Virus record (IMG/VR): IMGVR_UViG_3300025383_000020
Direction: 5' to 3' (one strand)
Length of the DNA: 20,000 bases
Origin: an uncultured virus (IMG/VR IMGVR_UViG_3300025383_000020)
Lineage: Duplodnaviria; Heunggongvirae; Uroviricota; Caudoviricetes
The notes below the pieces were generated by a model. That model was not told where the DNA came from. It worked only from the letters and a program-made list of their open reading frames with translations, and did not search any database. The first letter of the stretch is position 1, and each line of letters begins with the position of its first letter. Shown piece after piece: positions 1 through 18,343 of this stretch. Position numbers and translations under genes: made by a program.

Positions 1-963
1 TTTCTTAAGTCCACCTTCTGGAAGCTTAATGTCTCCAGTAGCTGCAGATGTTCCGCCTACTGCCTTTAAGAATAGATCAGTGTTGAAGTCGGCAGGTAGA
101 GGTGCAGTCTCCTGTTCGTAGAGACGGCTCTCGTTTTTAGCAACTGCAGGACTTTCTGCCGCTTTTGCTGGAGTGCCTAACGTAAGCATTTTATCAACTA
201 CATTCTGGTCAATCGACTCAACCGGATCGCCATATTCGTCTTTGATGCTGAATCCGGCAATAATTCCTTTGACGAAATTCGCAGAAGCGTCGCCAAGAGT
301 TCCAGCTTTAAGTTCAGCCTTTACTTTTGCAAATATCGGATTTGAGCTCAGTTTAGGGTCTTTCAATAGTGCAAAATACGCCTTCTTGATTGGAGAAAAT
401 GCAGGATCCTTTGAAGTCACTTTAGCAATATTATTTAGAGCGATTGGAGTAGTGATTTTTACTGGAGCTTGCGATACGCTTGCTTTTCCAGTAGCCGATG
501 CATTTGCGGTAGATACAGTTTGAGTAAGGATGCTCGCTTTTGCTGAATCTGTCACTAGGCTCTTAACTTCTTCCTGGGTAATAATTGTACGATCTGCAGG
601 TAGGCCTGGGGCTTCTGATCTTGGCGATATGGTGAACGTTATTAGCTGCTTGTTCGCGTTATCCTTGTCGACATGGTATATCACAAAGTTATTCTTAAGA
701 TCCCCTAGACCAGGATAGTATGGAAGCCACTTTGGCTGATTTTTTATCCAAGTAAGTATGCTGTTCCACCCGTTTTGAGTGATTTTACCAGTTGCCTCAT
801 CGATTACTCTAAGATCGTGAACTATCTTGATTTTAAAGCTTTTTTCGTCAACTGGAATACCTACGACCTTTTGACCGAATCCTGCAGTCTGTTTTGTTCT
901 GCCTGGAAATTCAGCTTCGTTTAATACTTTCCATTTTGAAAAGTCCGATACTATGTGATTCAT
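1..963 (-). CDS. Putative virion/internal head protein, partial (runs off left edge; absent from the ORF track)
   Basis: Open frame from ATG at 963 to the window edge: MNHIVSDFSKWKVLNEAEFPGRTKQ...DIKLPEGGLKK. The leader ends in L-N-E like neighbouring late genes, and a GATAAATA box lies at 983-990. Confidence 0.8.
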   Translation of the reverse strand, partial: MNHIVSDFSKWKVLNEAEFPGRTKQTAGFGQKVVGIPVDEKSFKIKIVHDLRVIDEATGKITQNGWNSILTWIKNQPKWLPYYPGLGDLKNNFVIYHVDKDNANKQLITFTISPRSEAPGLPADRTIITQEEVKSLVTDSAKASILTQTVSTANASATGKASVSQAPVKITTPIALNNIAKVTSKDPAFSPIKKAYFALLKDPKLSSNPIFAKVKAELKAGTLGDASANFVKGIIAGFSIKDEYGDPVESIDQNVVDKMLTLGTPAKAAESPAVAKNESRLYEQETAPLPADFNTDLFLKAVGGTSAATGDIKLPEGGLKK

Positions 964-982
964 TATTCGAAATTCTTTTTTT

Positions 983-990
983 TATTTATC
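983..990 (-). promoter_or_regulatory. Putative late promoter GATAAATA (T4 TATAAATA-like)
   Basis: The same octamer sits shortly upstream of many minus-strand starts: 983, 3400, 6527, 6760, 7374, 7973, 8695, 9456, 10604, 12086. Variants occur at ~2219-2230 and ~11158. Confidence 0.65.
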
Positions 991-1045
991 TTTAATGTAG
1001 GGCCCAATTGTAGTACTTTAATTATACACCATTAAACTTAAAATC

Positions 1046-1618: not shown

Positions 1619-2203
1619 TTAAGGTATCTTTTGAGTATCAACTCCAGTATTTATGTCAGTCTGAGTATTGACCACTGCTGCCTTAACTTTAGGTTCACTT
1701 GAATTTCCAACTTCACGTAAAGAGCCAACTGTCTTATTTAGATCTTCTGGATGCGCCTTCATTTTATCAATTCCATAGTCAATCAATGCGTGAGAAGTAT
1801 GAATTCCAAATACTCCATCGTTAAACGCTCTGGTTTTACCGATACGAGTAGTATATGTCTTGTATTTGGTGTCACTCATTAAAAACTCTTGAAACTTCTT
1901 GATGTCAGGATTTCCATCTTTTCCCTTTTGATTATATCCCTTGTTTGTAAAGAATTGAATTGCCGAATTAAGTTGATCATTTGTTAATTTGGAAAGTGCA
2001 TCAATATATTGGGCGACAGTCATTTTAGAAACAGCAGCTGATCCTCCAAGTAAAGTAGGCAAAAACTCAGAATTAAACATCATCAGAAAGTTCGCTATTT
2101 CTGGATCAAGAGATGGCGCTTTTACTGGAAGGGGTGTAATTGTTTGTTTAGGCTTAGCCTTTTGTTCATTTATTGCCTTCCATCTTGAGAAATTTAAAAT
2201 CAT
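1619..2203 (-). CDS. Putative virion protein with PG_binding_1-like motif, copy 1
   Basis: Leader MILNFSRWKAINE; motif IKKFQEFL...DGVFGIHTSHAL resembles the peptidoglycan-binding three-helix domain; paralog of 2840-3382. Confidence 0.6.
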   Translation of the reverse strand: MILNFSRWKAINEQKAKPKQTITPLPVKAPSLDPEIANFLMMFNSEFLPTLLGGSAAVSKMTVAQYIDALSKLTNDQLNSAIQFFTNKGYNQKGKDGNPDIKKFQEFLMSDTKYKTYTTRIGKTRAFNDGVFGIHTSHALIDYGIDKMKAHPEDLNKTVGSLREVGNSSEPKVKAAVVNTQTDINTGVDTQKIP

Positions 2204-2279
2204 CGTGAAACTTTTTATTATTTATTTAATAAGTAACGATATTGTAGTATTTTAATTATACACCATTAAACCTAAAATC

Positions 2280-2843
2280 ATGAAAAAGTTAATTGCAATA
2301 GCATTCTTTGCGGTAACTATCTCAGCAAACGCACAGACTCACCTTGACACTTTGATCTTCAATAAAGTCAATGAGTATCGCGCTAAAAAAGGAATAAAGC
2401 CGCTTTTCTGGAGTGATCAAGGCTATCGAGTAGCAAAAAACCAAGCACAATATATAAAGCTGCTTAAAGCAGTAATCCACGATCAAATAGATAGTGTAAG
2501 TCCGACTTTTAAATTGGAACCAAATTTTGTTAAGCGTTTTTCAAGACAGGGAATTTGCGTAACTGATACTAACTCATACGAAGCTGAAAATCTTGTAGCG
2601 GTCGGAGACACTGTTGCCTTTGTGAGCGATGAGGAAGTCGCAAACCGTGCGATTAACTCTTGGAAGAATTCACCGGCACATAATTCAATGATGCTTATGA
2701 AAGAAGTAACGTTCGCTGGTGTTGCGAACGTTATTGGAAGTGAATTATATGATGTCGCTGGAATAGATCCGGCAACTTTGGAAGAAACAATTATTCAAGT
2801 AAAAGGATATGTTTACTTTATTGCGCTAGACGCTCACAATTAA
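2280..2843 (+). CDS. Secreted CAP/SCP domain protein, copy 2
   Basis: Near-identical signal peptide to copy 1; NEYR, AENL, WKNSPAHNSMML. Confidence 0.85.
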   Translation: MKKLIAIAFFAVTISANAQTHLDTLIFNKVNEYRAKKGIKPLFWSDQGYRVAKNQAQYIKLLKAVIHDQIDSVSPTFKLEPNFVKRFSRQGICVTDTNSYEAENLVAVGDTVAFVSDEEVANRAINSWKNSPAHNSMMLMKEVTFAGVANVIGSELYDVAGIDPATLEETIIQVKGYVYFIALDAHN

Positions 2844-3382
2844 GGAACATATTGAGTTCCGGTTCCAGTCTTAACATCAGAAGGAGTAGCGACCTTTGCC
2901 GCTGGCACGTTTTGACCTGGTTCTTGATGAATTTGCGCAGCAGTTGCAGTAGTAGCTCCTACCGTCTTATTTTGGTCTGATGCGTGACTGTATTTTATTA
3001 TTCTATACTGAACTAACGCATTTGCAGTAGCTCTACCGAGTTTACCATCATCGAATTTTTCAGTCTTATCTTCAGCAGTAGTGAAAGTTTTAATTTCAGT
3101 CTTTGACATAAGGTATTGCTGAAGCTTAGTGATTGCTTCATTTGGCTGTTTATATCCTTTATCTGTAAAGAACTGTATTGCTCCGTTAAACGAATCGAGA
3201 GTTAGAGTTTTTAGCTTTGCAATATAGTCAGCAATTGTCATATTTGTTGGATCTCCAGTAAGAGTCGGAAGATATTCAGTATTAAATATCTCAAATACCT
3301 TTTTTGCTTCTGGATCCATTGCTGAAACTTCATGGGTAACTTGCTCGTGTAAAGCGCTCCATTTCTTAAAATTTAAAATCAT
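2840..3382 (-). CDS. Putative virion protein with PG_binding_1-like motif, copy 2
   Basis: Leader MILNFKKWSALHE; ITKLQQYL...DDGKLGRATANAL; shares F-NxE-[FY]-LPTL and AIQFFTxKGY with 1619-2203; GATAAATA at 3400-3407. Confidence 0.6.
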   Translation of the reverse strand: MILNFKKWSALHEQVTHEVSAMDPEAKKVFEIFNTEYLPTLTGDPTNMTIADYIAKLKTLTLDSFNGAIQFFTDKGYKQPNEAITKLQQYLMSKTEIKTFTTAEDKTEKFDDGKLGRATANALVQYRIIKYSHASDQNKTVGATTATAAQIHQEPGQNVPAAKVATPSDVKTGTGTQYVP

Positions 3383-3413
3383 TTCTGAAAGTTTTTTATT
3401 ATTTATCTAGTGA

Positions 3414-4133
3414 TTAAGGCAAACGCTCAAATATCTTATCAGCAAAGCCTAAATCTATCGTTTCTTCAGGCGAAAGTATTGTGTCATAATTTAAAAGATT
3501 GGCCAAATGCAGGCGAAGCTGTTCCCTTTTTTCCTCTGCTTTTTCTGAGAAAGTTATCTTTGCCTCTGGTAGTATTGACTTTATCTCAAAGGTCTTTTGT
3601 TTGGCCAGGATCCTCGATATTGCACCTGCAAGGTGACCGCCCCCTTCCTTTTCCTCTTTCTCAAGCATTGAATCAAGATAGATGTTCTCCATGATCCAGT
3701 TGTTTCTCTTGGACTCGTCTGCCCACTTTTCAAAGATCTTGGTGTGTCCAGCGATACCGTCAGTGCCGTAGTGTATCATGAATCTTGAATTGGGCATCAT
3801 TATTCTCTCATCTGCCGCCTGCAGTATTACGCTACCCATGCTCATGGCATAGCCGTAGACTTTTATGGTGATGTGACAGTTTGAATATTTAATAGCGTCG
3901 TAGATCGCCATTCCGTGGTACCAGTCACCTCCTGGATTATTCATTATGACGGTTATAGGTTTCTTATTCTTGGATTCAAGGACGTGCATGCCTTTGATGA
4001 AACACTCAGTCATGTTGTGATCGACTCCGCCTTCGCTTCCGTCTTCGTGAGTGTGCATGCTTCCCATGTAAATCATTCTCGATTGGAGATCGAGGTTTAA
4101 TGAAAACCATTTTTCTACGTCTCTAACAATCAT
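3414..4133 (-). CDS. clpP: ClpP-family (S14) protease with large internal insertion
   Basis: NNPGGD..GMAIYDAI, catalytic Ser in AMSMGS, His in FMIHY, Asp in YDTILSPEE..LGFAD. Confidence 0.9.
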   Translation of the reverse strand: MIVRDVEKWFSLNLDLQSRMIYMGSMHTHEDGSEGGVDHNMTECFIKGMHVLESKNKKPITVIMNNPGGDWYHGMAIYDAIKYSNCHITIKVYGYAMSMGSVILQAADERIMMPNSRFMIHYGTDGIAGHTKIFEKWADESKRNNWIMENIYLDSMLEKEEKEGGGHLAGAISRILAKQKTFEIKSILPEAKITFSEKAEEKREQLRLHLANLLNYDTILSPEETIDLGFADKIFERLP

Positions 4134-4224
4134 TGAAATGAATTTATTTGAAGTGCTCTATACTATATTATTTATTTCAAATCGATTTTAAAAATTGCTT
4201 CTATTTTGAGTATTAGTTTCAAAC

Positions 4225-5103
4225 ATGATGAAACACATACAAATATCAGCTGACCGAAAACTAAATAAGCTGAAGGGTACTAACACCTATTTTAATGAGA
4301 TTGACCGAATCAAGAGATTAACTATCGACCAGGAAGTTGACCTGGCAACCAGAGCAAAAGCCGGCGACAAGGCCGCGATGGACAAGCTGATCGAGGCAAA
4401 CCTCAAGTTCGTGGTGTCAGTAGCAAAAAATTACACATCAGATCCAGTCCTAGTGCAGGAGCTCATTGCCCAAGGCAATATCGGAATTATCCGTGCAGCG
4501 CAAAAATTTGATCCTACTCGCGGATTCAAGTTCATAACGTATGCAGTTTTCTGGATTCGTAACGAGATTCTTGAATACTACCTAAAGTACAATAGAGTGG
4601 TTCACCTGCCGTTGCACGTCGAAAACGACCTTAGAAAGGTAAAAAGGGTGCAGGCAAAGCTTGAACAAAAGTTTGATCGAACCCCTACCTTAAACGAAAT
4701 CGAAGATGAGCTAATCAAAATAGGAGAGCCGATTGATCTGGACAAGCTTAGACTCATACTTGAAGTAAAGGATCATGCCGTGCCCCTAGTGACTGACGAC
4801 CCTGAGTCATACGATCCAATCGAGTGGATAGAGGTCAAGTCAGAGACTGAAGTGACGATGCAACAGCTTGAATTTAGGGAAAAGATCGACGAGATACTTG
4901 AGGTACTCAGCCCAGACGAGAGGTCAATTGTGAGAAAGAGGCATGGATTTGACGGGTACGGCCCAATGGAATTTGAAGCGATTGGGATCCAGCACGGAAA
5001 AGGCACAGGTTGGGCAAGTCAGAGATATGCGATAGCGATGCGAAAAATGAGGGCTAAGCTCCACTTGATAAATTCATCAGAAGAGATCACTTTTTCTCTA
5101 TAA
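4225..5103 (+). CDS. Sigma-70 family RNA polymerase sigma factor (short RpoD/SigA-like, regions 1.2-4)
   Basis: ANLKFVVSVAKNY, LIAQGNIGIIRAAQKFDPTRGFKFITYAVFWIR, region 3 RTPTLNEI, region 4 LSPDERSIVRKRHG; no region 1.1. Confidence 0.92.
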   Translation: MMKHIQISADRKLNKLKGTNTYFNEIDRIKRLTIDQEVDLATRAKAGDKAAMDKLIEANLKFVVSVAKNYTSDPVLVQELIAQGNIGIIRAAQKFDPTRGFKFITYAVFWIRNEILEYYLKYNRVVHLPLHVENDLRKVKRVQAKLEQKFDRTPTLNEIEDELIKIGEPIDLDKLRLILEVKDHAVPLVTDDPESYDPIEWIEVKSETEVTMQQLEFREKIDEILEVLSPDERSIVRKRHGFDGYGPMEFEAIGIQHGKGTGWASQRYAIAMRKMRAKLHLINSSEEITFSL

Positions 5104-5680
5104 GGTAATCTTCAAACTTTGAGCTTTTTGGCTTGGTGTTAGTAAAGTAGTATTTCTCCTCGTGCTCTGCATAGTGTAGAGTCTTCCAAAAACCAGTAGG
5201 GATCCTGGCCCCGCTTTGCACCTTCTTTGCTGGGCCGCTAAAATCAACATCGATCCTGACCATCACTGGGTACTGTTGAGCAAGCTTACGCTCGTGATCC
5301 TCAAGAAACCTCCACGTTCCACGATTTAAGTTCTCCTGCTGTAGCGCGCAGTTCGCATAGGAAAAGGTCGCAATGAGAGCTAGCGAGTCGCAGTCAAAGT
5401 CTGCAGCTGGCGCCATGTGTCCCTTGTCCCACTCGTTATCCGCATAGTCTTTATTGCCAGTAGTTATGAGCCCGGGCTCAGGTTTAAAATCAAGCCCCTT
5501 GCGTGAGTATTTGGATTCGGTGCATAACACTTCATACTCTACCCAAACAGGCTCCCTAAATTCCTCTGAGTAACCGACCGTGTAGTGCGGTTTCTGGACT
5601 ATCTTTATTTTAGTAGAGGGTTGGGTTGCAGCCACTGTAAAAACAAAGAGGGTAAGCAATAGGACTCTTAACTTAAGCAT
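5087..5680 (-). CDS. Secreted DNA/RNA non-specific endonuclease (NucA/Serratia type)
   Basis: Signal peptide; WDKGHMAPAAD, NCALQQENLNRGTWRFLE, IPTGFWK motifs. Confidence 0.92.
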   Translation of the reverse strand: MLKLRVLLLTLFVFTVAATQPSTKIKIVQKPHYTVGYSEEFREPVWVEYEVLCTESKYSRKGLDFKPEPGLITTGNKDYADNEWDKGHMAPAADFDCDSLALIATFSYANCALQQENLNRGTWRFLEDHERKLAQQYPVMVRIDVDFSGPAKKVQSGARIPTGFWKTLHYAEHEEKYYFTNTKPKSSKFEDYLIEKK

Positions 5681-5700
5681 GGGATAAGATTCTTTTTATT

Positions 5701-6507
5701 TTAGAGATCCCAGTCAGTGCTTGCAGCTACTGTGAGGTATTGTGTTCCGTCAAACTTGATGCTACCGCCTGCACCACCGAACGGGTCGTCTGCATCCCAT
5801 ACTGCAGAGTTCACATTAGTGACCGTTCTTGCATGGGAACTGGAATCAGTAAGCAAGTGACCGGAATCCGTCGCAAGGAGCAGCAGCTTGGTTTCAGGCA
5901 GGGCAGTTAGCGGTGCAGTAGGTGTAGTAAAAGGTTCAGTGTAGATACATTTTGCAGTCCATCTAAAGTTAGTGATCTTTCCGTCTACTAGACTATCGAG
6001 GCCTCCGTCTTTTGGTTCTGCGCCAATGTATAAGGTATTACCACCGCTTGGTATCGCGTCATTATAGGTCGCGTCAGATCCAATCTGTGAACCATTAACG
6101 TAGAGTCGTAGTAGTCCGTTATTACGAGTCGCTGCTATGTGGTACCAGTTAGTTGTATTAAAGCTGACTGTTCCATCGACCCGATTGGTTTCATTAGACC
6201 ACCAGTATGCGTGGTGTCCGCCGTTCTCTATGCTGATCGCGTTAGGCGCTGGGTAAGTTCCTAGCGAGTAAGGACGTGGGTGTGATGTAGGGTTGCTCCA
6301 ACTTGCGGCCTTGATAAAAAATTCAATAGTAAAGTCGACTCCGGCAACGTGTGGTGGAGTCCTCTGTAGCTTGCTGCCGCCAGCTGCGCCGGGTGCCTGA
6401 CCTGCTCTGGCCATTCGCACTGCCTGTTCGTATATAGCATCGAGCTCAAATCTCTGATTTATTGATCTTTGTTCGGGAGTCTGGTGTCCCCAATTGATAA
6501 ATGACAT
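5701..6507 (-). CDS. LamG/concanavalin-like (Laminin_G_3) domain protein, probable virion/tail-associated
   Basis: DFTIEFFIK, WYHIAATR..LRLYVNG, LYIG, GKITNFR, TKLLL, GSIKFDG; GATAAATA at 6527-6534. Confidence 0.85.
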   Translation of the reverse strand: MSFINWGHQTPEQRSINQRFELDAIYEQAVRMARAGQAPGAAGGSKLQRTPPHVAGVDFTIEFFIKAASWSNPTSHPRPYSLGTYPAPNAISIENGGHHAYWWSNETNRVDGTVSFNTTNWYHIAATRNNGLLRLYVNGSQIGSDATYNDAIPSGGNTLYIGAEPKDGGLDSLVDGKITNFRWTAKCIYTEPFTTPTAPLTALPETKLLLLATDSGHLLTDSSSHARTVTNVNSAVWDADDPFGGAGGSIKFDGTQYLTVAASTDWDL

Positions 6508-6553
6508 GATTAAAGTGTGTTTTAGTTATTTATCAATGGTGCCTAAAAATCTC

Positions 6554-6754
6554 TTAGCTCTTTAGGTATTCTATTTTTGCTGGATCGAAGTCGACGAGTC
6601 CGTTCGGCTCGTATGGAAAGTCGCCGACTGATTTTTTAACTAGTGCGTCAACTGGGTGTGACACCTTTGGAATGGGCAGGGGACCCACTGGGACGTCCCT
6701 TTTTGGAAGGTCGTTAGTCTTTATTAGCTTTCCGGAAAATACGCCAGGCATCAT
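6554..6754 (-). CDS. Small Pro-rich hypothetical protein (late)
   Basis: 66-aa ORF filling the gap, immediately downstream of GATAAATA at 6760-6767. Confidence 0.6.
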   Translation of the reverse strand: MMPGVFSGKLIKTNDLPKRDVPVGPLPIPKVSHPVDALVKKSVGDFPYEPNGLVDFDPAKIEYLKS

Positions 6755-6762
6755 AGGATTAT

Positions 6763-7368
6763 TTATCGCCAGTCAAACTTGAGAAAGTCGGCAAGATTAT
6801 TCGGATAGTTCGGGTGATTTAGGGCAGCGTAACTCACATAAGAGTCTGGGTCCTTTGCAAGCTGGACTAGGATCTCGCCTGGAGAGTTAGGATTCCCAGC
6901 GACCAGGAGACGTACGTCAGCCAATCGGTCCCCTGCAAGCTGGGCTAGGGTCGATTGTTCCGCGTTCTGGTGATTGGCAACCACCAATCTTACATCAAAG
7001 TCAGCGTCCTTTGCCAGGAGGCCCAGCACCTCGCCTGGAGAGTTAGGATTCTTGGCGACCATTATTCGAACAAGGTCGGACGGATCCTCTGCAAGCTGGA
7101 TTAGAGACTCGACTGGAGCGTTAGGGTTCTGAGCGACTCTTACTCGTACCTGAAGGTCAAAGTCAGTTGCCAGCACGGCAAGGACTTTCTTTGGTGTGTT
7201 CTGGTGATTCGCGACGCCTGATCTTATATCAGGATTTGAGTCTGCTGCAAGCTCGACAAGAGTCTTCGCTGGAGTGTTAGGATTCCTCACAAGAGCATTG
7301 AGATCATCTACCGGATTCACATTTGATTCGAGCAAAAATTGGGAATATGATTTGATATGCATCTGCAT
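6763..7368 (-). CDS. LRV/HEAT-like repeat protein, paralog 1 (5 full 26-aa repeats + cap)
   Basis: Repeat LAxDxxxxVRxxVAxNPNxPxExLxx; leader MQMHIKSYSQFLLE; tail HPNYPNNLADFLKFDWR. Confidence 0.9.
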   Translation of the reverse strand: MQMHIKSYSQFLLESNVNPVDDLNALVRNPNTPAKTLVELAADSNPDIRSGVANHQNTPKKVLAVLATDFDLQVRVRVAQNPNAPVESLIQLAEDPSDLVRIMVAKNPNSPGEVLGLLAKDADFDVRLVVANHQNAEQSTLAQLAGDRLADVRLLVAGNPNSPGEILVQLAKDPDSYVSYAALNHPNYPNNLADFLKFDWR

Positions 7369-7376
7369 AGAGTTAT

Positions 7377-7967
7377 TTATCGCCAGTCAAACTTAAGCCA
7401 GTCAGCTAGATTATTAGGATAGTTCGGGTGTTCTTGAGCCGCCTGGCTCACTTTAGGCTGTAAATCCTTTGCTAGCTGAAGTAGGGTCTCGATAGGCACG
7501 TTAGGATTCTGGGCGACTCCCTTTCGTACACTCCATATAGCGTCCTTTGCTAGCTGAAGTAGCGTCTCGTCTGAAGTGTTAGAGTTACTGGCAACGTGCC
7601 ATCTCACATAAGAGTCTGGGTCCTGTGACAGGAGGGCAAGGGTCTCCGATGACGTGTTGGGATTTTCAGCTATAGCCACTCTCACTCTAGTGTCCTTTTC
7701 CTTTGAGAGCTGAAGTAGAGCCTCAGCTGGAGTTTTCGGGTTCCGGGCGACACATCGTCTCACTTTAATTTCAGGGTCCGCTGCAAGCTGGGCTAGAGCC
7801 TCAGCCGGAGCGTTCGGGTTCCAGACGACTTCTAGTCGTACCTCCAACTCAGGGTCCTGTGAAAGTTTCATTAGGACATCGGCTGGAGCATTAGGGTCCC
7901 TGGCTAGTGCCCGGTCCGAGTCATATTTCTCTAGTAGTAAACTTGAGTAAGGTTTAACGTACTTCAT
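7377..7967 (-). CDS. LRV/HEAT-like repeat protein, paralog 2 (5 repeats + cap)
   Basis: Same repeat; leader MKYVKPYSSLLLE; tail HPNYPNNLADWLKFDWR. Confidence 0.9.
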   Translation of the reverse strand: MKYVKPYSSLLLEKYDSDRALARDPNAPADVLMKLSQDPELEVRLEVVWNPNAPAEALAQLAADPEIKVRRCVARNPKTPAEALLQLSKEKDTRVRVAIAENPNTSSETLALLSQDPDSYVRWHVASNSNTSDETLLQLAKDAIWSVRKGVAQNPNVPIETLLQLAKDLQPKVSQAAQEHPNYPNNLADWLKFDWR

Positions 7968-7975
7968 AGAATTAT

Positions 7976-8686
7976 TTATCGCCAGTCGAACTTGAGAAAA
8001 TCCGCTAGATTATTAGGATAGTTCGGGTGGTTTTGAGCCAAGTGTCTCACAACAGAGTCTGGGTCCTTTGCCAACTGGAGTAGAGACTCGATAGGCGCGT
8101 TAGGGTTCCCGGAGACTGCAATTCTTATAGAACGATCTGAGTTCTGTGAAAGTTTCGCTAGGATCTCCACTGGAGTATTAGGATTCTCGGCGACCATAAA
8201 ACGCACGTCACTGTCGGCATCCCGTGTAAGGTCCACTAGGGTCTCGGCCGGAGTGTTCGGGTTATTGGCTACGCCCTGTCTCACTTCATCGTCTTCATCC
8301 TCTGCAAGTTTCACTAGGGTCTCGGCCGGAGTGTTCGGGTTTTCAGCGACTCTAAATCTCACTTTATAGTCTCCATCCTCTGCAAGTTCCACTAGGGTCT
8401 CGGAAGGGAGCTTGGGACTCTCGGCGACCTTTCTTACGACATCGGGGTCGGAGTCTCGTAAAAGTTTGACAAGGGTCCTGGGTTCAGTTGCTGGGTGCTT
8501 GGCGACCAACCAGCGAATCAAGGCCATGGGGCTGCTGGCCAGGTGGTGTAGGTCCTCGGCATCCACTCTTGGCGAATTGATAAACTCACGGATCTTGCCG
8601 AGCTCTTCGTCAGTTGGATTAGTGATATTGAACTCAAGGCGAGACTCAAGCAAAAATTGTGAATATGATTTGACGTGTAGCTTCAT
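7976..8686 (-). CDS. LRV/HEAT-like repeat protein, paralog 3 (6 repeats + cap)
   Basis: Same repeat; leader MKLHVKSYSQFLLE; same tail. Confidence 0.9.
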   Translation of the reverse strand: MKLHVKSYSQFLLESRLEFNITNPTDEELGKIREFINSPRVDAEDLHHLASSPMALIRWLVAKHPATEPRTLVKLLRDSDPDVVRKVAESPKLPSETLVELAEDGDYKVRFRVAENPNTPAETLVKLAEDEDDEVRQGVANNPNTPAETLVDLTRDADSDVRFMVAENPNTPVEILAKLSQNSDRSIRIAVSGNPNAPIESLLQLAKDPDSVVRHLAQNHPNYPNNLADFLKFDWR

Positions 8687-8697
8687 ATAAGATATAT

Positions 8698-9447
8698 TTA
8701 TCGCCAGTCAAACTTGAGAAAGTCGGCAAGATTATTAGGATAGTTCGGGTGTTCTTGAGCCTTTTGGCTCACTTTAGGGTCCGGGTCCTCTGCCAGTTGG
8801 AGTAGGGTCTTGATGGGAGTGTTTGGGTTCCTGGCGACAACTCGTCTCAGACTAGCGTCCCCATTTGCTGCAAGCTGGACAAGGGTCTCCACTGACACGT
8901 TAGGGTGCTCGACGACTCTCCATAGCACACGGTAATCGTCGTCCTCTGCAAGTTCAGCTAGGACCTCGGCGGGAGTCTTTAGGTTATCGGCGACGTTCCG
9001 TCTTACTTCACTGTCTCTATTCCTTGCAAGGTCCATCAGGATCTCCACTGGCGTGTTAGGGTTCTCAGCGACGCCACATCTCACCAAATAGTATCTGTCC
9101 GCTGCAAGCTGGGCTAGAGTCTCCACTGGAGTGTTATGATTTCGGGCGACGTTCCGTCTTACGTCAGAGTCTGGGTCACGTGCAAGGTCAATTAGGGTCT
9201 CCACTGGAGTGTTAGGGTTCGAGGCGACCCTCCATCTCACTTCAATTTCAGGGTCCTTTGCAAGCTGGACAAGGGTCTTGATGGGAGAGTTATGATTCCT
9301 GGCGACTCCTTCTCTCACTTTAACTTTAGGGTCCTTTGCAAGCTGGACAAGGGTCTCCACTGGAGTGTTAGGATCTTGGGCGACGTCCTCTCTTGACCGG
9401 TCTGATTGCTCTAGTAATAAGCTTGTGTAAGGCTTTACGTGCTTCAT
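8698..9447 (-). CDS. LRV/HEAT-like repeat protein, paralog 4 (7 repeats + cap); start revised to 9447
   Basis: ATG at 9447 gives MKHVKPYTSLLLE, matching the paralog leaders, and lies just downstream of GATAAATA (9456-9463). Confidence 0.9.
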   Translation of the reverse strand: MKHVKPYTSLLLEQSDRSREDVAQDPNTPVETLVQLAKDPKVKVREGVARNHNSPIKTLVQLAKDPEIEVRWRVASNPNTPVETLIDLARDPDSDVRRNVARNHNTPVETLAQLAADRYYLVRCGVAENPNTPVEILMDLARNRDSEVRRNVADNLKTPAEVLAELAEDDDYRVLWRVVEHPNVSVETLVQLAANGDASLRRVVARNPNTPIKTLLQLAEDPDPKVSQKAQEHPNYPNNLADFLKFDWR

Positions 9448-9461
9448 ATAAGATATATTTA

Positions 9462-10598
9462 TCACCAGTCACCGAGCGCCCAGTCTGTAATATCTTCGGG
9501 AAAGTTTGGATTTTCTTCCGCTGCTTTGCGGACTCTCGGGTCGGAGTCCGCTGCAAGGTGGACGAGAGTCTCCTTTGGAGTATTAGGGTTCGAGGCGACT
9601 CCTTCTCTCACTTCAACTTCAGGGTCCTTTGCAAGCTGGACAAGGGTCTCCACTGGAGTGTTAGGGTTCCTGGCGACTCCTTCTCTCACTTCAACTTCAG
9701 GGTCCACTGCAAGCTGGACAAGGGTCTCCACTGGAGTGTTAGGGTTCGAGGCGACCATCCATCTTACACTAGAGTCTGAGTCCTTTGCAAGCTGGACAAG
9801 GGTCTTGATGGGAGAGTTATGATTCCTGGCGACTCCTCCTCTCACTTTAACTTTAGGGTCCACTGCAAGCTGGACAAGGGTCTCCACTGGAGTGTTAGGG
9901 TTCCAGGCGACCATCCATCTTACACGAGAGTCTGAGTCCTTTGCAAGCTGGACTAGGGTCTTGATGGGAGAGTTAGGATTCTTGGCGACACTATGTCTCA
10001 CATGAAATTCTGAGTCCCCTGCAATCTGGGCAAGGGTCTCGATGGGAGTGTTAGGGTTCCAGGCGACAATATGTCTCACATGAGAGTCTGAGTCCCCTGC
10101 AAGCTGGACTAGAGCCTCAGCCGGAGTGTTAGGGTTTGCGGCGACCCCCGCTCTTAGCTCAGATTCCGGGTCCTCTGCAAGCTGGACTAGAGCCTCCTTT
10201 GGAGTGTTAGGATTCTTGGCGACACTATGTCTCACATAAGAGTTTGAGTCCCCTGCAAGCTGGACTAGAGCCTCAGCCGGAGTGTTAGGGTTCCAGGCGA
10301 CAATATGTCTCACATGAGAGTCTGAGTCCCCTGCAAGCTGGACTAGAGCCTCAGCCGGAGTGTTAGGGTTCTCGGCGACCATCTGTCTTACACGAGAGTC
10401 TGAGTCCTTTGCAAGCTGGACTAGGGTCTTGATGGGAGAGTTAGGATTCCTGGCGACTCCTGATCTTATATCAGGATTTGAGTCTGCTGCAAGCTCGACT
10501 AGCGTCTCCACTGGAGTGTCAGGGTTCCTGGCAAGGCTCAATCGTGACAGGCCAGATTGCTCTAGTAATAAGCTTGAGTAAGGTCTAATGTGCTTCAT
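9462..10598 (-). CDS. LRV/HEAT-like repeat protein, paralog 5 (12 repeats + cap); start revised to 10598
   Basis: ATG at 10598 gives MKHIRPYSSLLLE after GATAAATA (10604-10611); 78-nt periodicity; divergent tail NPNFPEDITDWALGDW. Confidence 0.9.
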   Translation of the reverse strand: MKHIRPYSSLLLEQSGLSRLSLARNPDTPVETLVELAADSNPDIRSGVARNPNSPIKTLVQLAKDSDSRVRQMVAENPNTPAEALVQLAGDSDSHVRHIVAWNPNTPAEALVQLAGDSNSYVRHSVAKNPNTPKEALVQLAEDPESELRAGVAANPNTPAEALVQLAGDSDSHVRHIVAWNPNTPIETLAQIAGDSEFHVRHSVAKNPNSPIKTLVQLAKDSDSRVRWMVAWNPNTPVETLVQLAVDPKVKVRGGVARNHNSPIKTLVQLAKDSDSSVRWMVASNPNTPVETLVQLAVDPEVEVREGVARNPNTPVETLVQLAKDPEVEVREGVASNPNTPKETLVHLAADSDPRVRKAAEENPNFPEDITDWALGDW

Positions 10599-10622
10599 AG
10601 GATTATTTATCGCGCCAAGTAC

Positions 10623-11243
10623 AAAAAGGTCAGGAGAACAGTAGCTGGCCATGGGGGATTTTTTTAAAAGCGCGAGGGCCTACTTTTCTGGGAGACCGGG
10701 GTTACAAAAAAGGCATAACCGAGTGGGCCAGTCCAGGGGATTTTTTTCCCAATGGAGAGGGGCATAAAAAAAGGGCTCCTTACTTGGGGCCCCTTTAAAA
10801 TAAAATTAGGAATATTTACTGGAATTGCAGGCCCATCATAAGTACTGCCCAAGGCTGTCCTTGCCCTCCCCCTAGGATATTGTCAGCCCTAAAGTATATT
10901 GCTTCAGGCGCGTTATCACTGGTTCCTTCTGCGTCATAGATAGAATCAAATACTACTGCATATTCTTCATGGCTCATAACCTCAGTTATTTTACCATAAC
11001 CGGCATAGCAATTTATCACCACACCGGCATCGTCTGCAAAACCAACAACATAGACTTCGTCTCCTACTTGAGGAGAGTCACCGTTAAAGCCTTTGTCCTC
11101 TTTAATATACTGGCCAAATTTCTTAATTTGAATTTTCATTTTTAAGTACTTTTTAGTTATTTATTTGCGTGATGCTACTAAAAATCAAAAAAGGCCAGGA
11201 GCACAGTCTGGCCATGGGGGATTTTTTTCCTAATGGAGAGGGG
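10623..11243. repeat. Dispersed direct repeats flanking gene 10816-11139
   Basis: AAAAAGGyCAGGAGmACAGT(AG)CTGGCCATGGGGGATTTTTTT at 10623-10665 and 11188-11228; GGGGATTTTTTTCCyAATGGAGAGGGG at 10736-10762 and 11217-11243. Confidence 0.85.
10816..11139 (-). CDS. Hypothetical late protein, leader + SH3/KOW-like beta domain
   Basis: Leader MKIQIKKFGQYIKE; PQVGDEVYVV..GKITEV..YAVVFD pattern; TAAATA upstream at ~11158. Confidence 0.7.
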   Translation of the reverse strand: MKIQIKKFGQYIKEDKGFNGDSPQVGDEVYVVGFADDAGVVINCYAGYGKITEVMSHEEYAVVFDSIYDAEGTSDNAPEAIYFRADNILGGGQGQPWAVLMMGLQFQ

Positions 11244-11340
11244 ACCTGAATCCAAACGCGCAGGGGTCCCAAGATCCCGGGCCCCAGTGGAGAGGAGTGA
11301 GCGACCGCTGGCCGGGCCTATAGTTACAAAATTTAACTTG

Positions 11341-11530
11341 AGTCTTCCCCAGTCTTCCAAGTCTTCCCTTGCTAGCCGGTCCAGTATAGTCATCCAGCTA
11401 GCCTGTCCAGGCGCCCTGCCAGGAGGCGCCCAGGAGGCGCCAGGGGCCTGCCTGGCCTGTCCAGGGTACCCCAGGGCCGGAGACACCAAGCCCCAGGCCA
11501 GACCGGCTAGCCTGGGAGCCAGCCAGGCGC
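11341..11530. repeat. GC-rich non-coding array: 3x AGTCTTCC, 10x CCWGG, 11-bp inverted repeat
   Basis: AGTCTTCC at 11341, 11351, 11360; CCWGG at 11407, 11419, 11430, 11440, 11451, 11461, 11471, 11493, 11511, 11523; GCTAGCCGGTC (11371) / GACCGGCTAGC (11501). Confidence 0.85.
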
Positions 11531-11774
11531 TGGACCGGGCCCGAAGGGTCTCTGCTGGGCTAGTTAGACCTGCTAGATTAATCCGCAGCGGGTCTCTGGT
11601 CTAACTTCCCAGCCTGCTAGCTGTGCAGCAGAGACCTGTGATCCTGCTAGCTAGGTGCCAGCCAAGCCGCGTCTTAATCCAATGGGGTCTCTAGCACGAC
11701 TTCCTAATTTTTCTAAGCAGCAGGTCTCTGGCCGGACTAGCAGAGACCCCAAGCAGGACTTGAATTCTTAAACA

Positions 11775-11804
11775 GCAAGAGCCGACCTTACGATCAGCTC
11801 TTGC
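11775..11804 (-). terminator. Hairpin, probable terminator of gene 11827-12066
   Basis: GCAAGAGC...GCTCTTGC stem just downstream of the stop codon; short T tract on the minus strand. Confidence 0.6.
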
Positions 11805-11826
11805 AAGAAATTAAGATTTACCAGAT

Positions 11827-12066
11827 TTAGCTAACTGACTGAGTCGGTTGTGCCCATCCGTTGATTGCCTCTACTCCAGACCAGTTAGTGTAAACTGTCT
11901 TACCGCCAGCTAGAGACACTTCAAAGACTTCGTGTCCGTCTGATCCAATACCTGCTGTGTAGATAAGAGTGATGTTTGTAGGAACCAAGCGGAGACCGTG
12001 TCCAGTCGGTGAGATTACCCCATCTGAATAACGATACTCGTCTACGCGTACCAATTGATTTGCCAT
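11827..12066 (-). CDS. Small hypothetical late protein (79 aa)
   Basis: GATAAATA at 12086-12093, A-rich start, own downstream hairpin. Confidence 0.75.
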   Translation of the reverse strand: MANQLVRVDEYRYSDGVISPTGHGLRLVPTNITLIYTAGIGSDGHEVFEVSLAGGKTVYTNWSGVEAINGWAQPTQSVS

Positions 12067-12146
12067 TTTAGTTTGATTTTTTTATTATTTATCCCTTTAC
12101 CAGTGTAGAGTCTCTTGAAAAATAAAGTTAGCAAAAAGTTTTTCCG

Positions 12147-12171
12147 TGTCAGGGGCTTTAGTTATATTTAC
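12147..12171 (+). promoter_or_regulatory. Putative early promoter TGTCA-N11-TATATTTAC
   Basis: Conserved bipartite motif with fixed 11-nt spacer and an upstream A/T tract, ahead of ATG 12194. Confidence 0.8.
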
Positions 12172-12193
12172 TTATCACCAAAAATAAAAAAAC

Positions 12194-12358
12194 ATGTCAC
12201 TTAAGCAAGCACTGATGAACTCGCAGGAAATTTCAGAAAGTGAAGCCACCCAGAGGATACGGGAAATGCGGCAACTGGTATGGGACGGCGAGGACCCGGA
12301 AGAGGTTCTTTACGAGGAAGGCCTCGAACCCGACTACGTCCCTGACCTCCTATTTTAA
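12194..12358 (+). CDS. Small acidic phage protein, 54 aa (absent from the ORF track)
   Basis: MSLKQALMNSQEISESEATQRIREMRQLVWDGEDPEEVLYEEGLEPDYVPDLLF; first ORF after the promoter, AAAAAC-ATG start. Confidence 0.8.
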   Translation: MSLKQALMNSQEISESEATQRIREMRQLVWDGEDPEEVLYEEGLEPDYVPDLLF

Positions 12359-12377
12359 AACCTAATAAACCAAAAGC

Positions 12378-12638
12378 ATGAATTGGAAAGTAAGATTAGA
12401 CCGCTACCTTACGTCACCGCCAGACGATGACTACGACCGCTGGTCTAGTGCTGTGATGGAGGCGCACGACCAAGAGTTCTATGAAGCGAACTGCCCCTGG
12501 CTGGGGGAGTCACAGTACGACCGATGGCTTTCAAAATGTTTCGACGAGAAGAATCTTGAACCCAAAGCCGCTGCTGAACTTATCGAAAGGACACACCGAT
12601 TCTTTAAGATACCTCGACCCGTGACCGGCACCAAATAG
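12378..12638 (+). CDS. Hypothetical protein
   Basis: 86-aa ORF, A-rich start, followed by a terminator. Confidence 0.75.
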   Translation: MNWKVRLDRYLTSPPDDDYDRWSSAVMEAHDQEFYEANCPWLGESQYDRWLSKCFDEKNLEPKAAAELIERTHRFFKIPRPVTGTK

Positions 12639-12670
12639 CTGGACTACTCCGTAGATCTAATACTGGCCAG

Positions 12671-12695
12671 AGGCTCCCCAAAAGGGAGCCTTTTT
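12671..12695 (+). terminator. Rho-independent terminator
   Basis: AGGCTCCC-CAAAA-GGGAGCCT followed by TTTT. Confidence 0.85.
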
Positions 12696-12757
12696 CAGTT
12701 TCTGGAAACCTGTCACCGGGTTTTAGTATTTTATAAATAACAAAAAAGCCGATCCAC

Positions 12758-12964
12758 ATGAGTCCCGAAGAAATGATAAGAGAGTATTACCTAGAGCTGG
12801 GAGAACCCGAGCCGCTGACCCTAAACCGGACTGTGCTGCACGAAGACAGTTCGATCGTCTCTGTCCAGTACGAGATACTGCCGAATGCCGCTGTCACGGC
12901 AAGGACCATTAAGCTTAAGTGCATCTTTATGCGGGACGGCTCTCACCTAATAACTAAGATCTAA
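12758..12964 (+). CDS. Hypothetical protein
   Basis: 68-aa ORF after a promoter-like TGTCA...TAGTATTTTATA; abuts the next ORF. Confidence 0.7.
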   Translation: MSPEEMIREYYLELGEPEPLTLNRTVLHEDSSIVSVQYEILPNAAVTARTIKLKCIFMRDGSHLITKI

Positions 12965-13279
12965 ATGAACCCAAAGCTGGAATCCTTCTGGGAGACTCTG
13001 AAACCCGGACTTGACCGTACTCCGGAAAGTCTCGTCCACTTCAGCTGGGCGCTGGAAGACTGGGAAGCCGAGTCTCTTGCTGTCGCGCTTGACCTGTTCA
13101 GCAAGGAACCCGTCCTGCTTAAGCACGAACTTGCCTCTCAGCTTGAAGAACTGGACTGGCTTATGCAGAGGCTCCTTGAGCTTGAAGAGTACGAGTGCTG
13201 TGCTAGGGTAAAGGAGACGCGGGAGAGGGCTAGCGTCAGAAATCAGGATTTACTTAAACCAAAAAGAAGAAAAAGATGA
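12965..13279 (+). CDS. Hypothetical protein with UvrB/UvrC (UVR)-like coiled motif
   Basis: LEELDWLMQRLLELEEYECCARVKE resembles the UVR consensus (M..A...E.YE.AA..RD). Confidence 0.6.
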   Translation: MNPKLESFWETLKPGLDRTPESLVHFSWALEDWEAESLAVALDLFSKEPVLLKHELASQLEELDWLMQRLLELEEYECCARVKETRERASVRNQDLLKPKRRKR

Positions 13280-13476
13280 CATACGAATTAGCAAAAGGAG
13301 TCCTAGCCGAGGATTATCCGGACGGTCGCACCCGAGTCTGGGGCAGGTGTAAAAGAACAGGTCGAGTATGGGAAAGCTGGCCTAGCACCGAATTGGTAGA
13401 AGCCTGGTTAAGGGGCGAAGGGTCTCTTAGCCCAGCCGAAGAGAGCTTCATCAGGAAGGGGGAGTCTCCCGAATAG
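13276..13476 (+). CDS. Hypothetical protein
   Basis: ATGA overlap with the upstream gene. Confidence 0.7.
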   Translation: MTYELAKGVLAEDYPDGRTRVWGRCKRTGRVWESWPSTELVEAWLRGEGSLSPAEESFIRKGESPE

Positions 13477-13497
13477 ATAACACTAAAATTAAAAAAG

Positions 13498-13857
13498 ATG
13501 CCACCTAAAAATCCGCTAGAAAAGATAATCCACTGGATTGGCACGCCGCTTTCTCTGGTGCTGCACACCGTCTTCTTCGTCGGTATGCTGCTGCTCATAC
13601 CGCTGGGCGTGTCAAAAGAGGACGTGATGCTTGTGCTGACGACGCTCGTCTCTCTTGAGGCCATCTACCTGAGCATCTTTATCCAGATGGGGGTCAACCG
13701 CCAAGTCGAAGCACAGGAAGAGACCAGAAATTTCATCTCTACCGGACTCACTACCCTGCAAGAAACGATTGAGGAAGTACAGGAAACCGTCGAAGAAGTA
13801 CAGGAAACCATTGACGAACCTGAAGAAGCGGAGGATCCGGCGTCTCTAGAAAAATAA
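13498..13857 (+). CDS. DUF1003-like membrane protein with acidic coiled tail
   Basis: Two hydrophobic helices; WIGT and LTTLVSLEAIYLSIFIQMGVNRQ; heptad repeat EEVQETV/EEVQETI. Confidence 0.8.
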   Translation: MPPKNPLEKIIHWIGTPLSLVLHTVFFVGMLLLIPLGVSKEDVMLVLTTLVSLEAIYLSIFIQMGVNRQVEAQEETRNFISTGLTTLQETIEEVQETVEEVQETIDEPEEAEDPASLEK

Positions 13858-13878
13858 AGTTGCTTAAAAGTTTTTTAG

Positions 13879-13903
13879 TGTCAGGAGCATTCGTTATATT
13901 TAC
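13879..13903 (+). promoter_or_regulatory. Putative early promoter
   Basis: TGTCA-N11-TATATTTAC. Confidence 0.8.
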
Positions 13904-13921
13904 TTCTATAAATCAAACAAG

Positions 13922-14239
13922 ATGAAAAACACAAAAAAGATTGAAGTACTTCAGGCAATACTACTCGGCCAAGAGACTCAACTGGATTCCATTTTCACCA
14001 ATTTCATTGACGCCTTTTCCGTGCCCTTCACAAAGAAGGAAGTCAAGAGTCTTTCCAAAAAGGGATTTGAGCTCACTGACGAGTCACACGCAACGGGTGA
14101 TGAAATGTCAGTAGTAAAGTTCAAGCTACCCTGTCAGAAGGCGATATTCGTCAAGGTGGACTGGGACTGGTCACCGACTTTCGACCTTGACTTGGAGTCG
14201 CTCATCGCTGAATTCGATGACATTGAGGACGATTTCTAA
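13922..14239 (+). CDS. Hypothetical acidic protein
   Basis: 105-aa ORF directly after the promoter. Confidence 0.8.
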   Translation: MKNTKKIEVLQAILLGQETQLDSIFTNFIDAFSVPFTKKEVKSLSKKGFELTDESHATGDEMSVVKFKLPCQKAIFVKVDWDWSPTFDLDLESLIAEFDDIEDDF

Positions 14240-18258: not shown

Positions 18259-18343
18259 GTGTTTGCTTGGCCCAACTTGGAAAAAGACCAGCACAGGGTC
18301 TCTGGAAAAATAGTTGAAAAATAGTTGCTCAAAAATTTTTAGT

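Follow-up and report, generated by a model that had tools for sequence, protein, structure and literature searches.

T-even phages possess internal proteins that have a common leader and block different restriction enzymes (PMC3012670, PMC12373910). Those of T4 are highly basic (PMC8442874), are packed by the hundreds and are then injected (PMC9026906, PMC3012670); Ip1, Ip2 and Ip3 share only the leader, each of them blocking a different GmrSD-type restriction enzyme, and at least ten such internal proteins are described for the phages related to T4 (PMC12373910). The T4 leader, the capsid targeting sequence (CTS), reads MKTYQEFIAE (PMC8442874); targeting depends mainly on its residues 4 and 7, and processing on its residues 8 and 10 (PMC9026906). 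Many head proteins of phiKZ-like giant phages such as 201phi2-1 and SPN3US have propeptides that a gp21-related protease removes by cutting after Glu, and these proteins are ejected into the host (PMC9026906). The present analysis concerns a stretch of 20,000 nucleotides (nt) from an uncultured virus of the Caudoviricetes (IMG/VR record IMGVR_UViG_3300025383_000020; the whole stretch is called the window in the following), in which five tandem genes, named here g1 to g5, encode LRV repeat proteins that begin with a leader resembling the T4 CTS. We know of no established function for LRV repeats, and the name of the family gives no mechanism.

Our tentative reading, to which we give somewhat less than an even chance, is that the five genes constitute a late-expressed family of alpha-solenoid (LRV/HEAT-like) proteins serving as tag-directed capsid cargo, in an internal-protein system of the T4 type belonging to a freshwater phage. 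By means of the leader (or tag), each array protein would dock to the prohead's scaffolding core, and a head maturation protease would cut after the Glu of the LLE with which the leader ends; the mature solenoids, of 20-40 kDa, would be retained in the capsid until, together with the DNA, they pass into the next host, and the exposed face of the first helix of the repeats (helix A; positions 7, 8, 11, 12 and 15 of each repeat) would form a long, customised binding surface, kept changing by diversifying selection, by duplication of repeats and by shuffling of helix-A cassettes. In open-access text no literature linking LRV repeats to phages was found, and none of the matches listed there joined the term 'HEAT repeat' to phage virions or ejection.

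The gene array, its repeats and their fold

The five genes are paralogous and lie in tandem on the minus strand between positions 6763 and 10598, with gaps of 8-14 nt between them according to the open reading frame (ORF) calls (Table 1). The start codons of two of them were chosen inside longer frames: for g4 the ATG at 9447 was set by the alignment of the leaders and by an ATAAATA motif 8 nt upstream, in an ORF that reaches, from a GTG, to 9465, and for g5 the ATG at 10598 was set by the same motif 5 nt upstream, in an ORF open to 10652. All five proteins match the Pfam family PF01816 (LRV) with E-values from 7.6e-34 to 8.6e-98 and scores of 114-315 bits, over 3-12 stretches per protein, the gathering cut-off of the family being 21.6 bits; LRV_2 and the HEAT families, including the HEAT_2 hidden Markov model (HMM), gave weaker matches. 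Cut in a register of 26 residues, which is maintained without any indel, the proteins have 5 full repeats in g1 and in g2, 6 in g3, 7 in g4 and 12 in g5, which makes 35, and the same fixed-register cut leaves in every protein an N-cap half repeat and a C-cap; in g5 Tandem Repeats Finder detects a period of 78 nt, with 12.7 copies and 77% matches. The period being exactly 26 residues, the proteins resemble the alphaRep scaffold in their working but fall outside the 31-residue alphaRep and PBS-lyase repeats.

The C-terminal tail prolongs the repeat pattern: HPNYP takes the place of NPNTP, NNLADF resembles helix B, and a final LKFDWR corresponds to LAxDxx. Two types of tail occur, HPNYPNNLAD[FW]LKFDWR in g1-g4 and NPNFPEDITDWALGDW in g5; among g1-g4 the tails are 88-98% identical at the nucleotide level and their differences are synonymous, bar one F/W change. 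We read the tail as a putative structural cap under purifying selection; a docking role is a bare possibility.

AlphaFold2 modelled the g2 protein as a regular alpha-solenoid with a mean predicted local distance difference test (pLDDT) score of 91.3, in which a helix A of nine residues (repeat positions 7-15) is followed by a helix B of seven residues (positions 21-27); the model is less certain at the leader (pLDDT about 71) and over the last 16 residues (54-72). When this model was submitted to Foldseek, the LRV protein of Azotobacter vinelandii (1LRV) was ranked first (E 6e-6) and alphaRep binders occupied ranks 2-5 (6bzx, 4zv6, 7p0h and 7q1f), with TMq 0.64-0.68; 1LRV was recovered by sequence too (phmmer E 4.3e-12).

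Over the 35 repeats, column entropy reaches 3.0-3.6 bits at positions 7, 8, 11, 12 and 15, against values of at most 0.9 bits at the scaffold positions L1, A2, D4, V9, R10, V13, A14, N16, N18, P20 and L24 and of about 1.0-1.1 bits at P17 and E22; aromatic residues and His together make up 34% at position 11. The variable positions are spaced i, i+1, i+4, i+5, i+8 and span about 140 degrees of helix A. Their spacing is identical to that of positions 18, 19, 22, 23 and 26 of alphaRep, which (with position 30) are randomised in the alphaRep library and form the concave binding face in solved complexes (PMC3754942). From helix geometry and from this correspondence, rather than from measured solvent exposure, we infer that the variable positions share one face of helix A, with V9, R10, V13 and A14 on the opposite one.

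The preliminary description of this DNA, which had reported five tandem paralogues at these positions, 5, 5, 6, 7 and 12 repeats (35 in total) and leaders ending in LLE, proved exact on all of these points, and the six nonamers that it quoted from the variable region are all present in the array proteins; its analogy with an alphaRep-like fold and with the randomised alphaRep positions is borne out by the model, the Foldseek search and the spacing, and the variable columns that it singled out emerge as such from the entropies. The capping tail that it mentioned is real, and is refined here to a prolongation of the repeat pattern that comes in two types. As to the positions that it called hypervariable and aromatic-rich, the trait is seen in the array, but the same trait is found across LRV proteins generally: a sample of 532 repeats from 120 further LRV proteins varies most at these very columns and often has aromatic residues at positions 7, 8 and 11. 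Because the same columns vary in these other proteins, the combination of a constant scaffold with a variable xxVRxxVAx is to be regarded as a trait of the family, and the idea that aromatic-rich hypervariable columns are peculiar to this locus is ruled out by the comparison. At equal sample size the entropy of the array at positions 11, 12 and 15 equals that of the whole family sample, and its scaffold columns are far less varied. Similarly, the side-chain frequencies of the alphaRep library were modelled on those found naturally in its own repeat family (PMC3754942), so that the pattern common to alphaRep and the array is a property of the family and no evidence of a repertoire.

The leader, the late motif and the question of packaging

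The leaders comprise 13-14 residues and all end in LLE, the last nine residues being K-S-Y-S-Q-F-L-L-E in g1 and g3 and K/R-P-Y-S/T-S-L-L-L-E in g2, g4 and g5. After two to three extra residues, Tyr, Phe/Leu, Leu and Glu stand at the equivalents of T4 positions 4, 7, 8 and 10 in five of five leaders; the translations of T4 ipII and ipIII begin with the same CTS letters. By resemblance only, the leaders may be assigned to the T4 capsid-targeting type (aromatic, x, x, aromatic/Leu, Leu, x, Glu). A leader of this kind is also carried by a 107-residue protein encoded next to the array, which gave no match in Pfam, PHROG or PADLOC; three late proteins at the left of the window, of 606, 194 and 180 residues, bear the tag in a second form, which reads F-x-x-W-x-x-[IL]-[NH]-E. 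Only two IMG/VR contigs share the design of leader, LRV repeats and tail with the array; in the larger of them, a contig of 37.8 kilobases (kb) referred to as G001 (loci L001, L011 and L079), the tag stands on at least nine further proteins, including proteins with PG_binding_1 and tRNA_bind domains. The earlier suggestion that the shared leader is reminiscent of the T4 packaging tag thus gains from the match to the CTS residues and from the occurrence of similar leaders on unrelated late proteins.

The frequency of the tag was assessed over 99 ORFs, drawn from the window, from a 2.6-kb extension of it (L003) and from G001. The tag pattern occurs within the first 20 residues of 16 of the 99, about 1.9 being expected from interior positions, and a wider pattern occurs in 20 of the 99, both patterns having been written after the data had been seen. 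Applied to the 50-100 kb region of T4 as a control, the same patterns select two of 71 ORFs, which are ipII and ipIII; ipI, whose leader is longer, is missed.

Some of the tagged proteins outside the array deserve a separate mention. In G001, a tagged PG_binding_1 protein (MLLTFEGFINE...) is encoded at L011 5898-6923 and a tagged tRNA_bind protein at L011 9150-9656, the latter starting with MTKTYHDFKAE, almost the targeting sequence of T4 itself; the two are candidates for enzymatic or RNA-binding capsid cargo. In the extension of the window (L003 14837-15367), a protein of 176 residues has a DUF3008 domain at its N-terminus, followed at about residue 60 by a tag-like ...TFSEFVNE; here the tag may have been put behind another domain, unless the start of the gene was mis-called.

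The heptamer ATAAATA is present 15 times in the window, compared with 2.4 expected, a number reached in none of 200 shuffles. Fourteen of the 15 copies lie on the minus strand, 13 of them 5-35 nt upstream of minus-strand ATG starts, and all the minus-strand genes from position 1 to 12100 carry the motif, with the sole exception of an endonuclease gene. In front of each of the five LRV genes only 5-8 nt separate it from the ATG, and it overlaps the stop codon with which the preceding gene ends; in front of the tagged genes for the 606-, 194- and 180-residue proteins the distance is 15-19 nt. The late promoter of T4-like cyanophages reads NATAAATA, and that of T4 and KVP40 TATAAATA (PMC2984593). 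Tag and motif are associated, the tag being found in 15 of the 26 ORFs with the motif and in 5 of the 73 without it (Fisher p 2.8e-7). As far as can be judged from sequence, the motif shows late co-expression with virion genes and not membership of an internal-protein set; indeed, the motif itself is no mark of internal proteins, because in T4 the 50 nt upstream of ipII and of ipIII contain no TATAAATA. One may speculate that, with a start site placed as in T4, transcription from a motif only 5 nt away from the ATG would yield leaderless mRNAs. Shine-Dalgarno sequences are not visible on either strand of the window. A terminator between the gene of the 107-residue protein and g5 had been considered and was dropped, since the terminator scan gave none on that strand. 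On the plus strand, between 13880 and 17400, at least seven small genes (starting at 13922, 14570, 15543, 15845, 16667, 17030 and 17405) are preceded by another promoter-like block, consisting of GTTGTCAGG, a spacer of about 8 nt and TTATATTTAC, with 15-20 nt from there to the ATG; this block probably marks a class of early genes distinct from the ATAAATA genes.

A number of points weigh against the view that the array proteins are capsid cargo. The LLLE of the leader falls in the repeat register of LAxD, and in the AlphaFold2 model the N-cap helix begins with the leader as its first turns, so that the 'leader' of the LRV genes could in part be an N-cap. Three long LRV proteins of cyanobacterial type (P0007, P0010 and P0035, one of them from Calothrix according to its source) start with ...(P)(D/E)F(N/E)xLVxE, similar to the phage leaders; their N-termini might reflect an N-cap typical of an LRV subfamily or else a past exchange with phages. 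The mature array proteins are acidic, with isoelectric points of 4.8-5.4 and masses of 20-40 kDa, and not small and highly basic as the T4 internal proteins are. The sole protease of head type in the window is related to ClpP and does not belong to the gp21 family, whose L/I-x-E rule is assumed for the cleavage proposed here; its best NCBIfam row, Clp_rel_HeadMat, scores 88.9 bits, under the cut-off of 120, and we regard the protein as a candidate head maturation protease. PF03420 (gp21, Peptidase_S77) was not found in the 37.8-kb G001 fragment, in a search that matched none of 14 control genomes either and therefore says little.

These four sets of observations (the LLLE in the LAxD register and the leader running into the N-cap helix, the similar N-termini of three cyanobacterial-type proteins, the acidity, and the lack of a gp21-type protease in the scans of the window and in the G001 search) speak in favour of a different fate of the proteins, namely that they are late repeat proteins that are not packaged and act as cytoplasmic adaptors, as assembly chaperones or in external decoration or adhesion, their N-terminus being a cap or some other late-protein signal for partner docking or stability. 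This account, which we consider somewhat unlikely, is difficult to reconcile with the same tag on unrelated proteins, which an LRV cap does not explain, with the match at the four functionally mapped positions of the CTS, and with the fact that in the T4 control the tag pattern picks only ipII and ipIII.

The remaining points against capsid cargo concern the phage and the way in which the patterns were obtained. Outside the LRV family, the window and G001 share no gene at E 1e-4, and none of the T4 core genes was found by Pfam and PHROG in the 20 kb of the window, these being seen in the relative G001 only; it is from the late motif, from the tag and from one relative that the window phage is presumed to be of the T4 type. 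The absence of the T4 late promoter upstream of ipII and ipIII, the tag patterns written in retrospect, the variability of the same columns throughout the LRV family and the retrospective choice of those columns (see below) are to be added to this list. Finally, packaging, cleavage, injection, binding and the target bound are, all of them, what we infer and not what was observed.

Divergence of the variable positions and the origin of the array

In the variable columns, the ratio of non-synonymous to synonymous divergence (dN/dS) is 1.4 over all 595 pairs of repeats and 3.7 over the 25 closest pairs, compared with 0.25-0.32 for the scaffold, values in which dN is inflated by the choice of the columns after their variability had been seen and which come from repeats that may be recombinant. 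In a test with independent pairs, each repeat was used once and the pairs were picked on the other half of the repeat only; here the proportions of non-synonymous differences (pN) in the variable codons and of synonymous differences (pS) in the interleaved scaffold codons (1, 2, 4, 9, 10, 13 and 14) are 0.58-0.59 and 0.20-0.23, respectively. Over the 12 closest pairs, the ratio of dN in the variable columns to dS in all columns is 4.5 (bootstrap 3.2-6.9). Non-synonymous divergence of the variable columns is 2-5 times the divergence of interleaved synonymous sites. The low synonymous divergence reflects shared descent and not codon bias, because the codons of the scaffold are specific to the position: the Leu at position 1 is encoded by CTT in 28 of the 35 repeats and that at position 24 by CTA in 22 of the 35, and the Ala residues at positions 2 and 14 by GCA and GCC, respectively. 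These comparisons are good, if not formal, evidence that the variable positions are under diversifying selection, as the preliminary description had supposed; the divergence of the variable columns is non-neutral in the pairwise comparison of repeats.

In several pairs of repeats the second halves are 96-100% identical and the helix-A halves quite different, which points to a probable shuffling of helix-A cassettes in addition to point substitution; the repeats labelled 42 in g4 and 262 in g5 are 96% identical, which points to an exchange between genes. The same observations can be cited, together with the near-identity of the junctions across genes and across two phages and with the modular shuffling by regulatory cassettes described for T4-type phages (PMC2839356), for the explanation that the conserved unit of tail, stop codon overlapping ATAAATA, and leader is a recombination joint, the array having arisen by unequal crossing-over and gene conversion and its surface being under relaxed constraint. 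Such a joint would be akin to the homology-mediated shuffling of internal-protein loci in T-even phages and to mobile promoter cassettes in T4-type phages. As a complete account of the locus we judge this quite unlikely: under relaxed constraint dN/dS rises to 1 at most, which leaves unexplained why non-synonymous divergence exceeds, by a factor of 2-5, the synonymous divergence of codons interleaved with it in a stretch of 27 nt, and the amino acids of the tail have been preserved through synonymous changes. Recombination at the joints may well have taken place alongside a role of the proteins as capsid cargo, rather than replacing it.

The sharp limitation of the differences to a few codons, with identical codons adjoining them, would also be compatible with a targeted mutagenesis of the helix-A codons, for example by a diversity-generating retroelement. 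That origin appears extremely improbable: no reverse transcriptase domain was detected by Pfam in 36 ORFs of the window and in three ORFs of its L003 extension, the repeat searches of the window revealed no template-like extra copy of the repeat block outside the array genes, and the variation lies among paralogous repeats and not between a template and a target.

If the array proteins are capsid cargo, host defence or takeover factors are the obvious candidates for their targets, and an anti-defence function is a reasonable guess, in both cases by analogy. A more ambitious proposal, which we rate as unlikely, is that environmental T4-type phages possess natural, evolvable binder libraries of alpha-solenoid proteins with an alphaRep-like scaffold, loaded into the capsid by means of a T4-type tag and injected, in which each paralogue or stretch of repeats would neutralise a different target in host defence or takeover, and in which new specificities would arise by duplication of repeats, by shuffling of helix-A cassettes and by positive selection at five positions of each repeat; such a library, if it existed, would be the counterpart on the virus side of an adaptive recognition repertoire. 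Were the proteins packed and injected, the internal-protein strategy of T4 would reach beyond a few unrelated small inhibitors in coliphages to repeat scaffolds of modular build in freshwater phages that are uncultured, specificity could be readable from five positions per repeat, the targets would be approachable by structure prediction and pull-downs, and binder scaffolds already selected in nature would be at hand. Even without packing, the locus would remain a clear case of what is probably diversifying selection on the surface of a viral repeat protein. With tag and late motif combined, metagenomic T4-type phages can be screened for candidate capsid cargo by a simple sequence rule.

Surroundings, relatives and comparison with described systems

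The coordinates of the array, of its parts and of the neighbouring genes discussed are collected in Table 1.

Table 1. Features of the array and neighbouring genes, in window positions; E-values are from matches to the families named.
Feature	Position	Strand	Remarks
g1	6763..7368	-	201 amino acids (aa); leader, N-cap, 5 LRV repeats, C-cap; PF01816 E 7.6e-34; fixed register
g2	7377..7967	-	196 aa; leader, N-cap, 5 LRV repeats, C-cap; PF01816 E 1.6e-39; alpha-solenoid model and 1LRV match as in the text
g3	7976..8686	-	236 aa; leader, longer N-terminal region, 6 LRV repeats, C-cap; PF01816 E 7.5e-36; register
g4	8698..9447	-	249 aa from the chosen ATG; leader, N-cap, 7 LRV repeats, C-cap; PF01816 E 1.7e-42
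g5	9462..10598	-	378 aa from the chosen ATG; leader, N-cap, 12 LRV repeats, second C-cap type; PF01816 E 8.6e-98, 12 stretches
g1 leader	7327..7368	-	MQMHIKSYSQFLLE; CTS-like, compared with T4 CTS
g2 leader	7929..7967	-	MKYVKPYSSLLLE
g3 leader	8645..8686	-	MKLHVKSYSQFLLE
g4 leader	9409..9447	-	MKHVKPYTSLLLE
g5 leader	10560..10598	-	MKHIRPYSSLLLE
g1 C-cap tail and stop	6763..6816	-	HPNYPNNLADFLKFDWR; tail conservation
g2 C-cap tail	7377-7430	-	same type as g1
g3 C-cap tail	7976-8029	-	same type as g1
g4 C-cap tail	8698-8751	-	same type as g1
g5 C-cap tail	9462-9512	-	second type
ATAAATA	7374..7380	-	5 nt before g1 ATG; overlaps g2 stop
ATAAATA	7973..7979	-	5 nt before g2 ATG
ATAAATA	8695..8701	-	8 nt before g3 ATG
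ATAAATA	9456..9462	-	8 nt before g4 ATG
ATAAATA	10604..10610	-	5 nt before g5 ATG
66-aa ORF	6554..6754	-	directly after g1; ATAAATA 5 nt upstream; no leader
107-aa acidic protein	10816..11139	-	unrelated to LRV; same leader kind (MKIQIKKFGQYIKE); adjoins array upstream; ATAAATA 18 nt upstream
606-aa late protein	1..963	-	N-terminal 321 aa in window; second leader form MNHIVSDFSKWKVLNE
194-aa late protein	1619-2203	-	leader MILNFSRWKAINE; paralogous to 180-aa protein
180-aa late protein	2840-3382	-	leader MILNFKKWSALHE; paralogous to 194-aa protein
ClpP-related protease	3414..4133	-	late motif; PF00574 E 3e-28; phrog_94 head maturation protease E 1.4e-32

The larger of the two related contigs, G001, is T4-like, with a T4-type portal (phrog_213), a gp4-like head closure protein (phrog_218), a DNA polymerase, a primase, a helicase and PhoH. 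It has two LRV genes, of 121 and 148 residues (about two and three full repeats), which have the same leader, represent one tail type each and carry ATAAATA at the same distance from the ATG as the genes of the array; they are dispersed and not tandem. That the content of the array might change among relatives, as the preliminary description anticipated, holds in so far as two dispersed genes in G001 stand against five tandem ones here, with only two contigs available for comparison. A scan for the junction pattern returned 107 stretches, and among the 79 loci newly gained LRV genes occur only in L079, which belongs to G001; another match, L002, was known before.

LRV proteins as such are plentiful, with 241 and 160 matches in two protein searches and 19,658 representatives at E <=0.001 in a third; leader and DW tail were found together in one of the 232 matches listed (P0014) and in none of the best 150 of the 19,658. 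A protein search with the tail region only returned nothing, and did not return the paralogues of the array either, so that the contig may be absent from the collection searched. Among GenBank phages the locus has no match at the DNA level and, at the protein level, one weak match, to Moorella phage MTATph1, at 33% identity; the ClpP-like protein has no close relative in IMG/VR, and its GenBank phage matches, like those of the sigma factor, are too distant to place the phage. An LRV array of a different design is present in a metagenome contig of 5.6 kb (L010 1046-5565), where three tandem paralogues, of 539, 525 and more than 408 residues, have N-termini of the form M..IR.LIESI.LE... and C-termini ending in ...LRQLIRLMV; the LRV repeats of the second (locus 3692-4216) are about 50% identical to those of g2.

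A freshwater metagenome contig of 113.5 kb has an end identical to positions 1-13977 of the window, which itself continues to 20000; the window represents either another assembly or a permuted or circular form of the genome of that contig. Part of the stretch is contained in 16 freshwater metagenome runs, four of which hold half of it or more and none of which is recorded as RNA. In four freshwater runs the contigs break at repeats, a skip from 8116 to 9565 and one back-joint being ambiguous within the repeat array. Contigs of the freshwater runs leave the window at 9456, 7972 and 6751, which are tail/ATAAATA junctions, and continue as the sequence that follows the LRV genes of the G001-like phage; because of these switches, both phages are taken to co-occur and to share junctions.

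The other neighbours of the array within the window include CAP-domain proteins, a nuclease that is secreted and non-specific, a Laminin_G_3 protein with a resemblance to proteins of the virion and the baseplate, and two sigma-70 family factors. The sigma-70 factors (4225-5103 and 18343-19116, both on the plus strand) are full-length, with regions 1.2, 2, (3) and 4, and match RpoS/RpoD rows of NCBIfam, all below the cut-offs; T4-type phages normally use a late factor of the gp55 type, and a pair of sigma-70 factors is unusual for such a phage. Between 1046 and 3382 a module of two genes is tandemly duplicated, plus-strand CAP genes (1046-1618 and 2280-2843) facing the minus-strand tagged genes of the 194- and 180-residue proteins, and the upstream regions of the two modules are near-identical. 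Between two late genes, a G+C-rich stretch of 650 nt (11180-11826; also 10650-10800) contains no convincing gene; it has many short direct and inverted repeats, overlapping ORFs of odd composition on both strands and no Rfam match, and a 27-nt element, GGGGATTTTTTTCC(C/T)AATGGAGAGGGG, occurs at 10736 and again at 11217. No tRNA and no Rfam family were found in the window, and the defence and counter-defence HMMs of PADLOC-DB gave no family for any of 12 proteins.

Turning to the systems with which the locus may be compared, the A. vinelandii protein 1LRV (PF01816 / PF25591) has the same signature, DxxxxVRxxVA...P..L, and an alpha-solenoid fold; it differs in having two residues fewer per repeat, in the loop, and the phage proteins differ from it by their tag, by the conserved cap ending in DW and by their context of viral late genes. 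1LRV has in addition an N-terminal Fe-S domain. The alphaRep binders are structural neighbours of the array proteins, and the variable positions here are spaced as the randomised positions of their binding face are; the alphaRep repeat has 31 residues, against 26 here, and alphaRep libraries are man-made. With the inner-body proteins of phiKZ-like phages the array has in common the possible use of a propeptide cut after Glu, which in those phages is borne by ejected head proteins; the cleavage motif there has another context, the cargo is unrelated and no phiKZ-type genes were seen in the window.

The nearest parallel is with the internal proteins of T-even phages. In both cases the tag has aromatic residues three apart and ends in hydrophobic-x-Glu (MKTYQEFIAE in T4, KSYSQFLLE or KPYSSLLLE in the window), it is common to otherwise unrelated proteins, and the genes are clustered in a variable locus. 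Unlike the unrelated small proteins of T4, the cargo proposed here is a single paralogous repeat family with a diversified surface; the proteins of the window are acidic and of 20-40 kDa and those of T4 small and basic; the tag of the window has two to three extra residues after the Met; a late motif precedes the ATG of every single gene, at a distance of 5-8 nt; and no gp21 protease was seen in the window. Internal proteins that share a leader are already well described in T-even phages, and the concept put forward for the array is an extension of that system and not a wholly new one.

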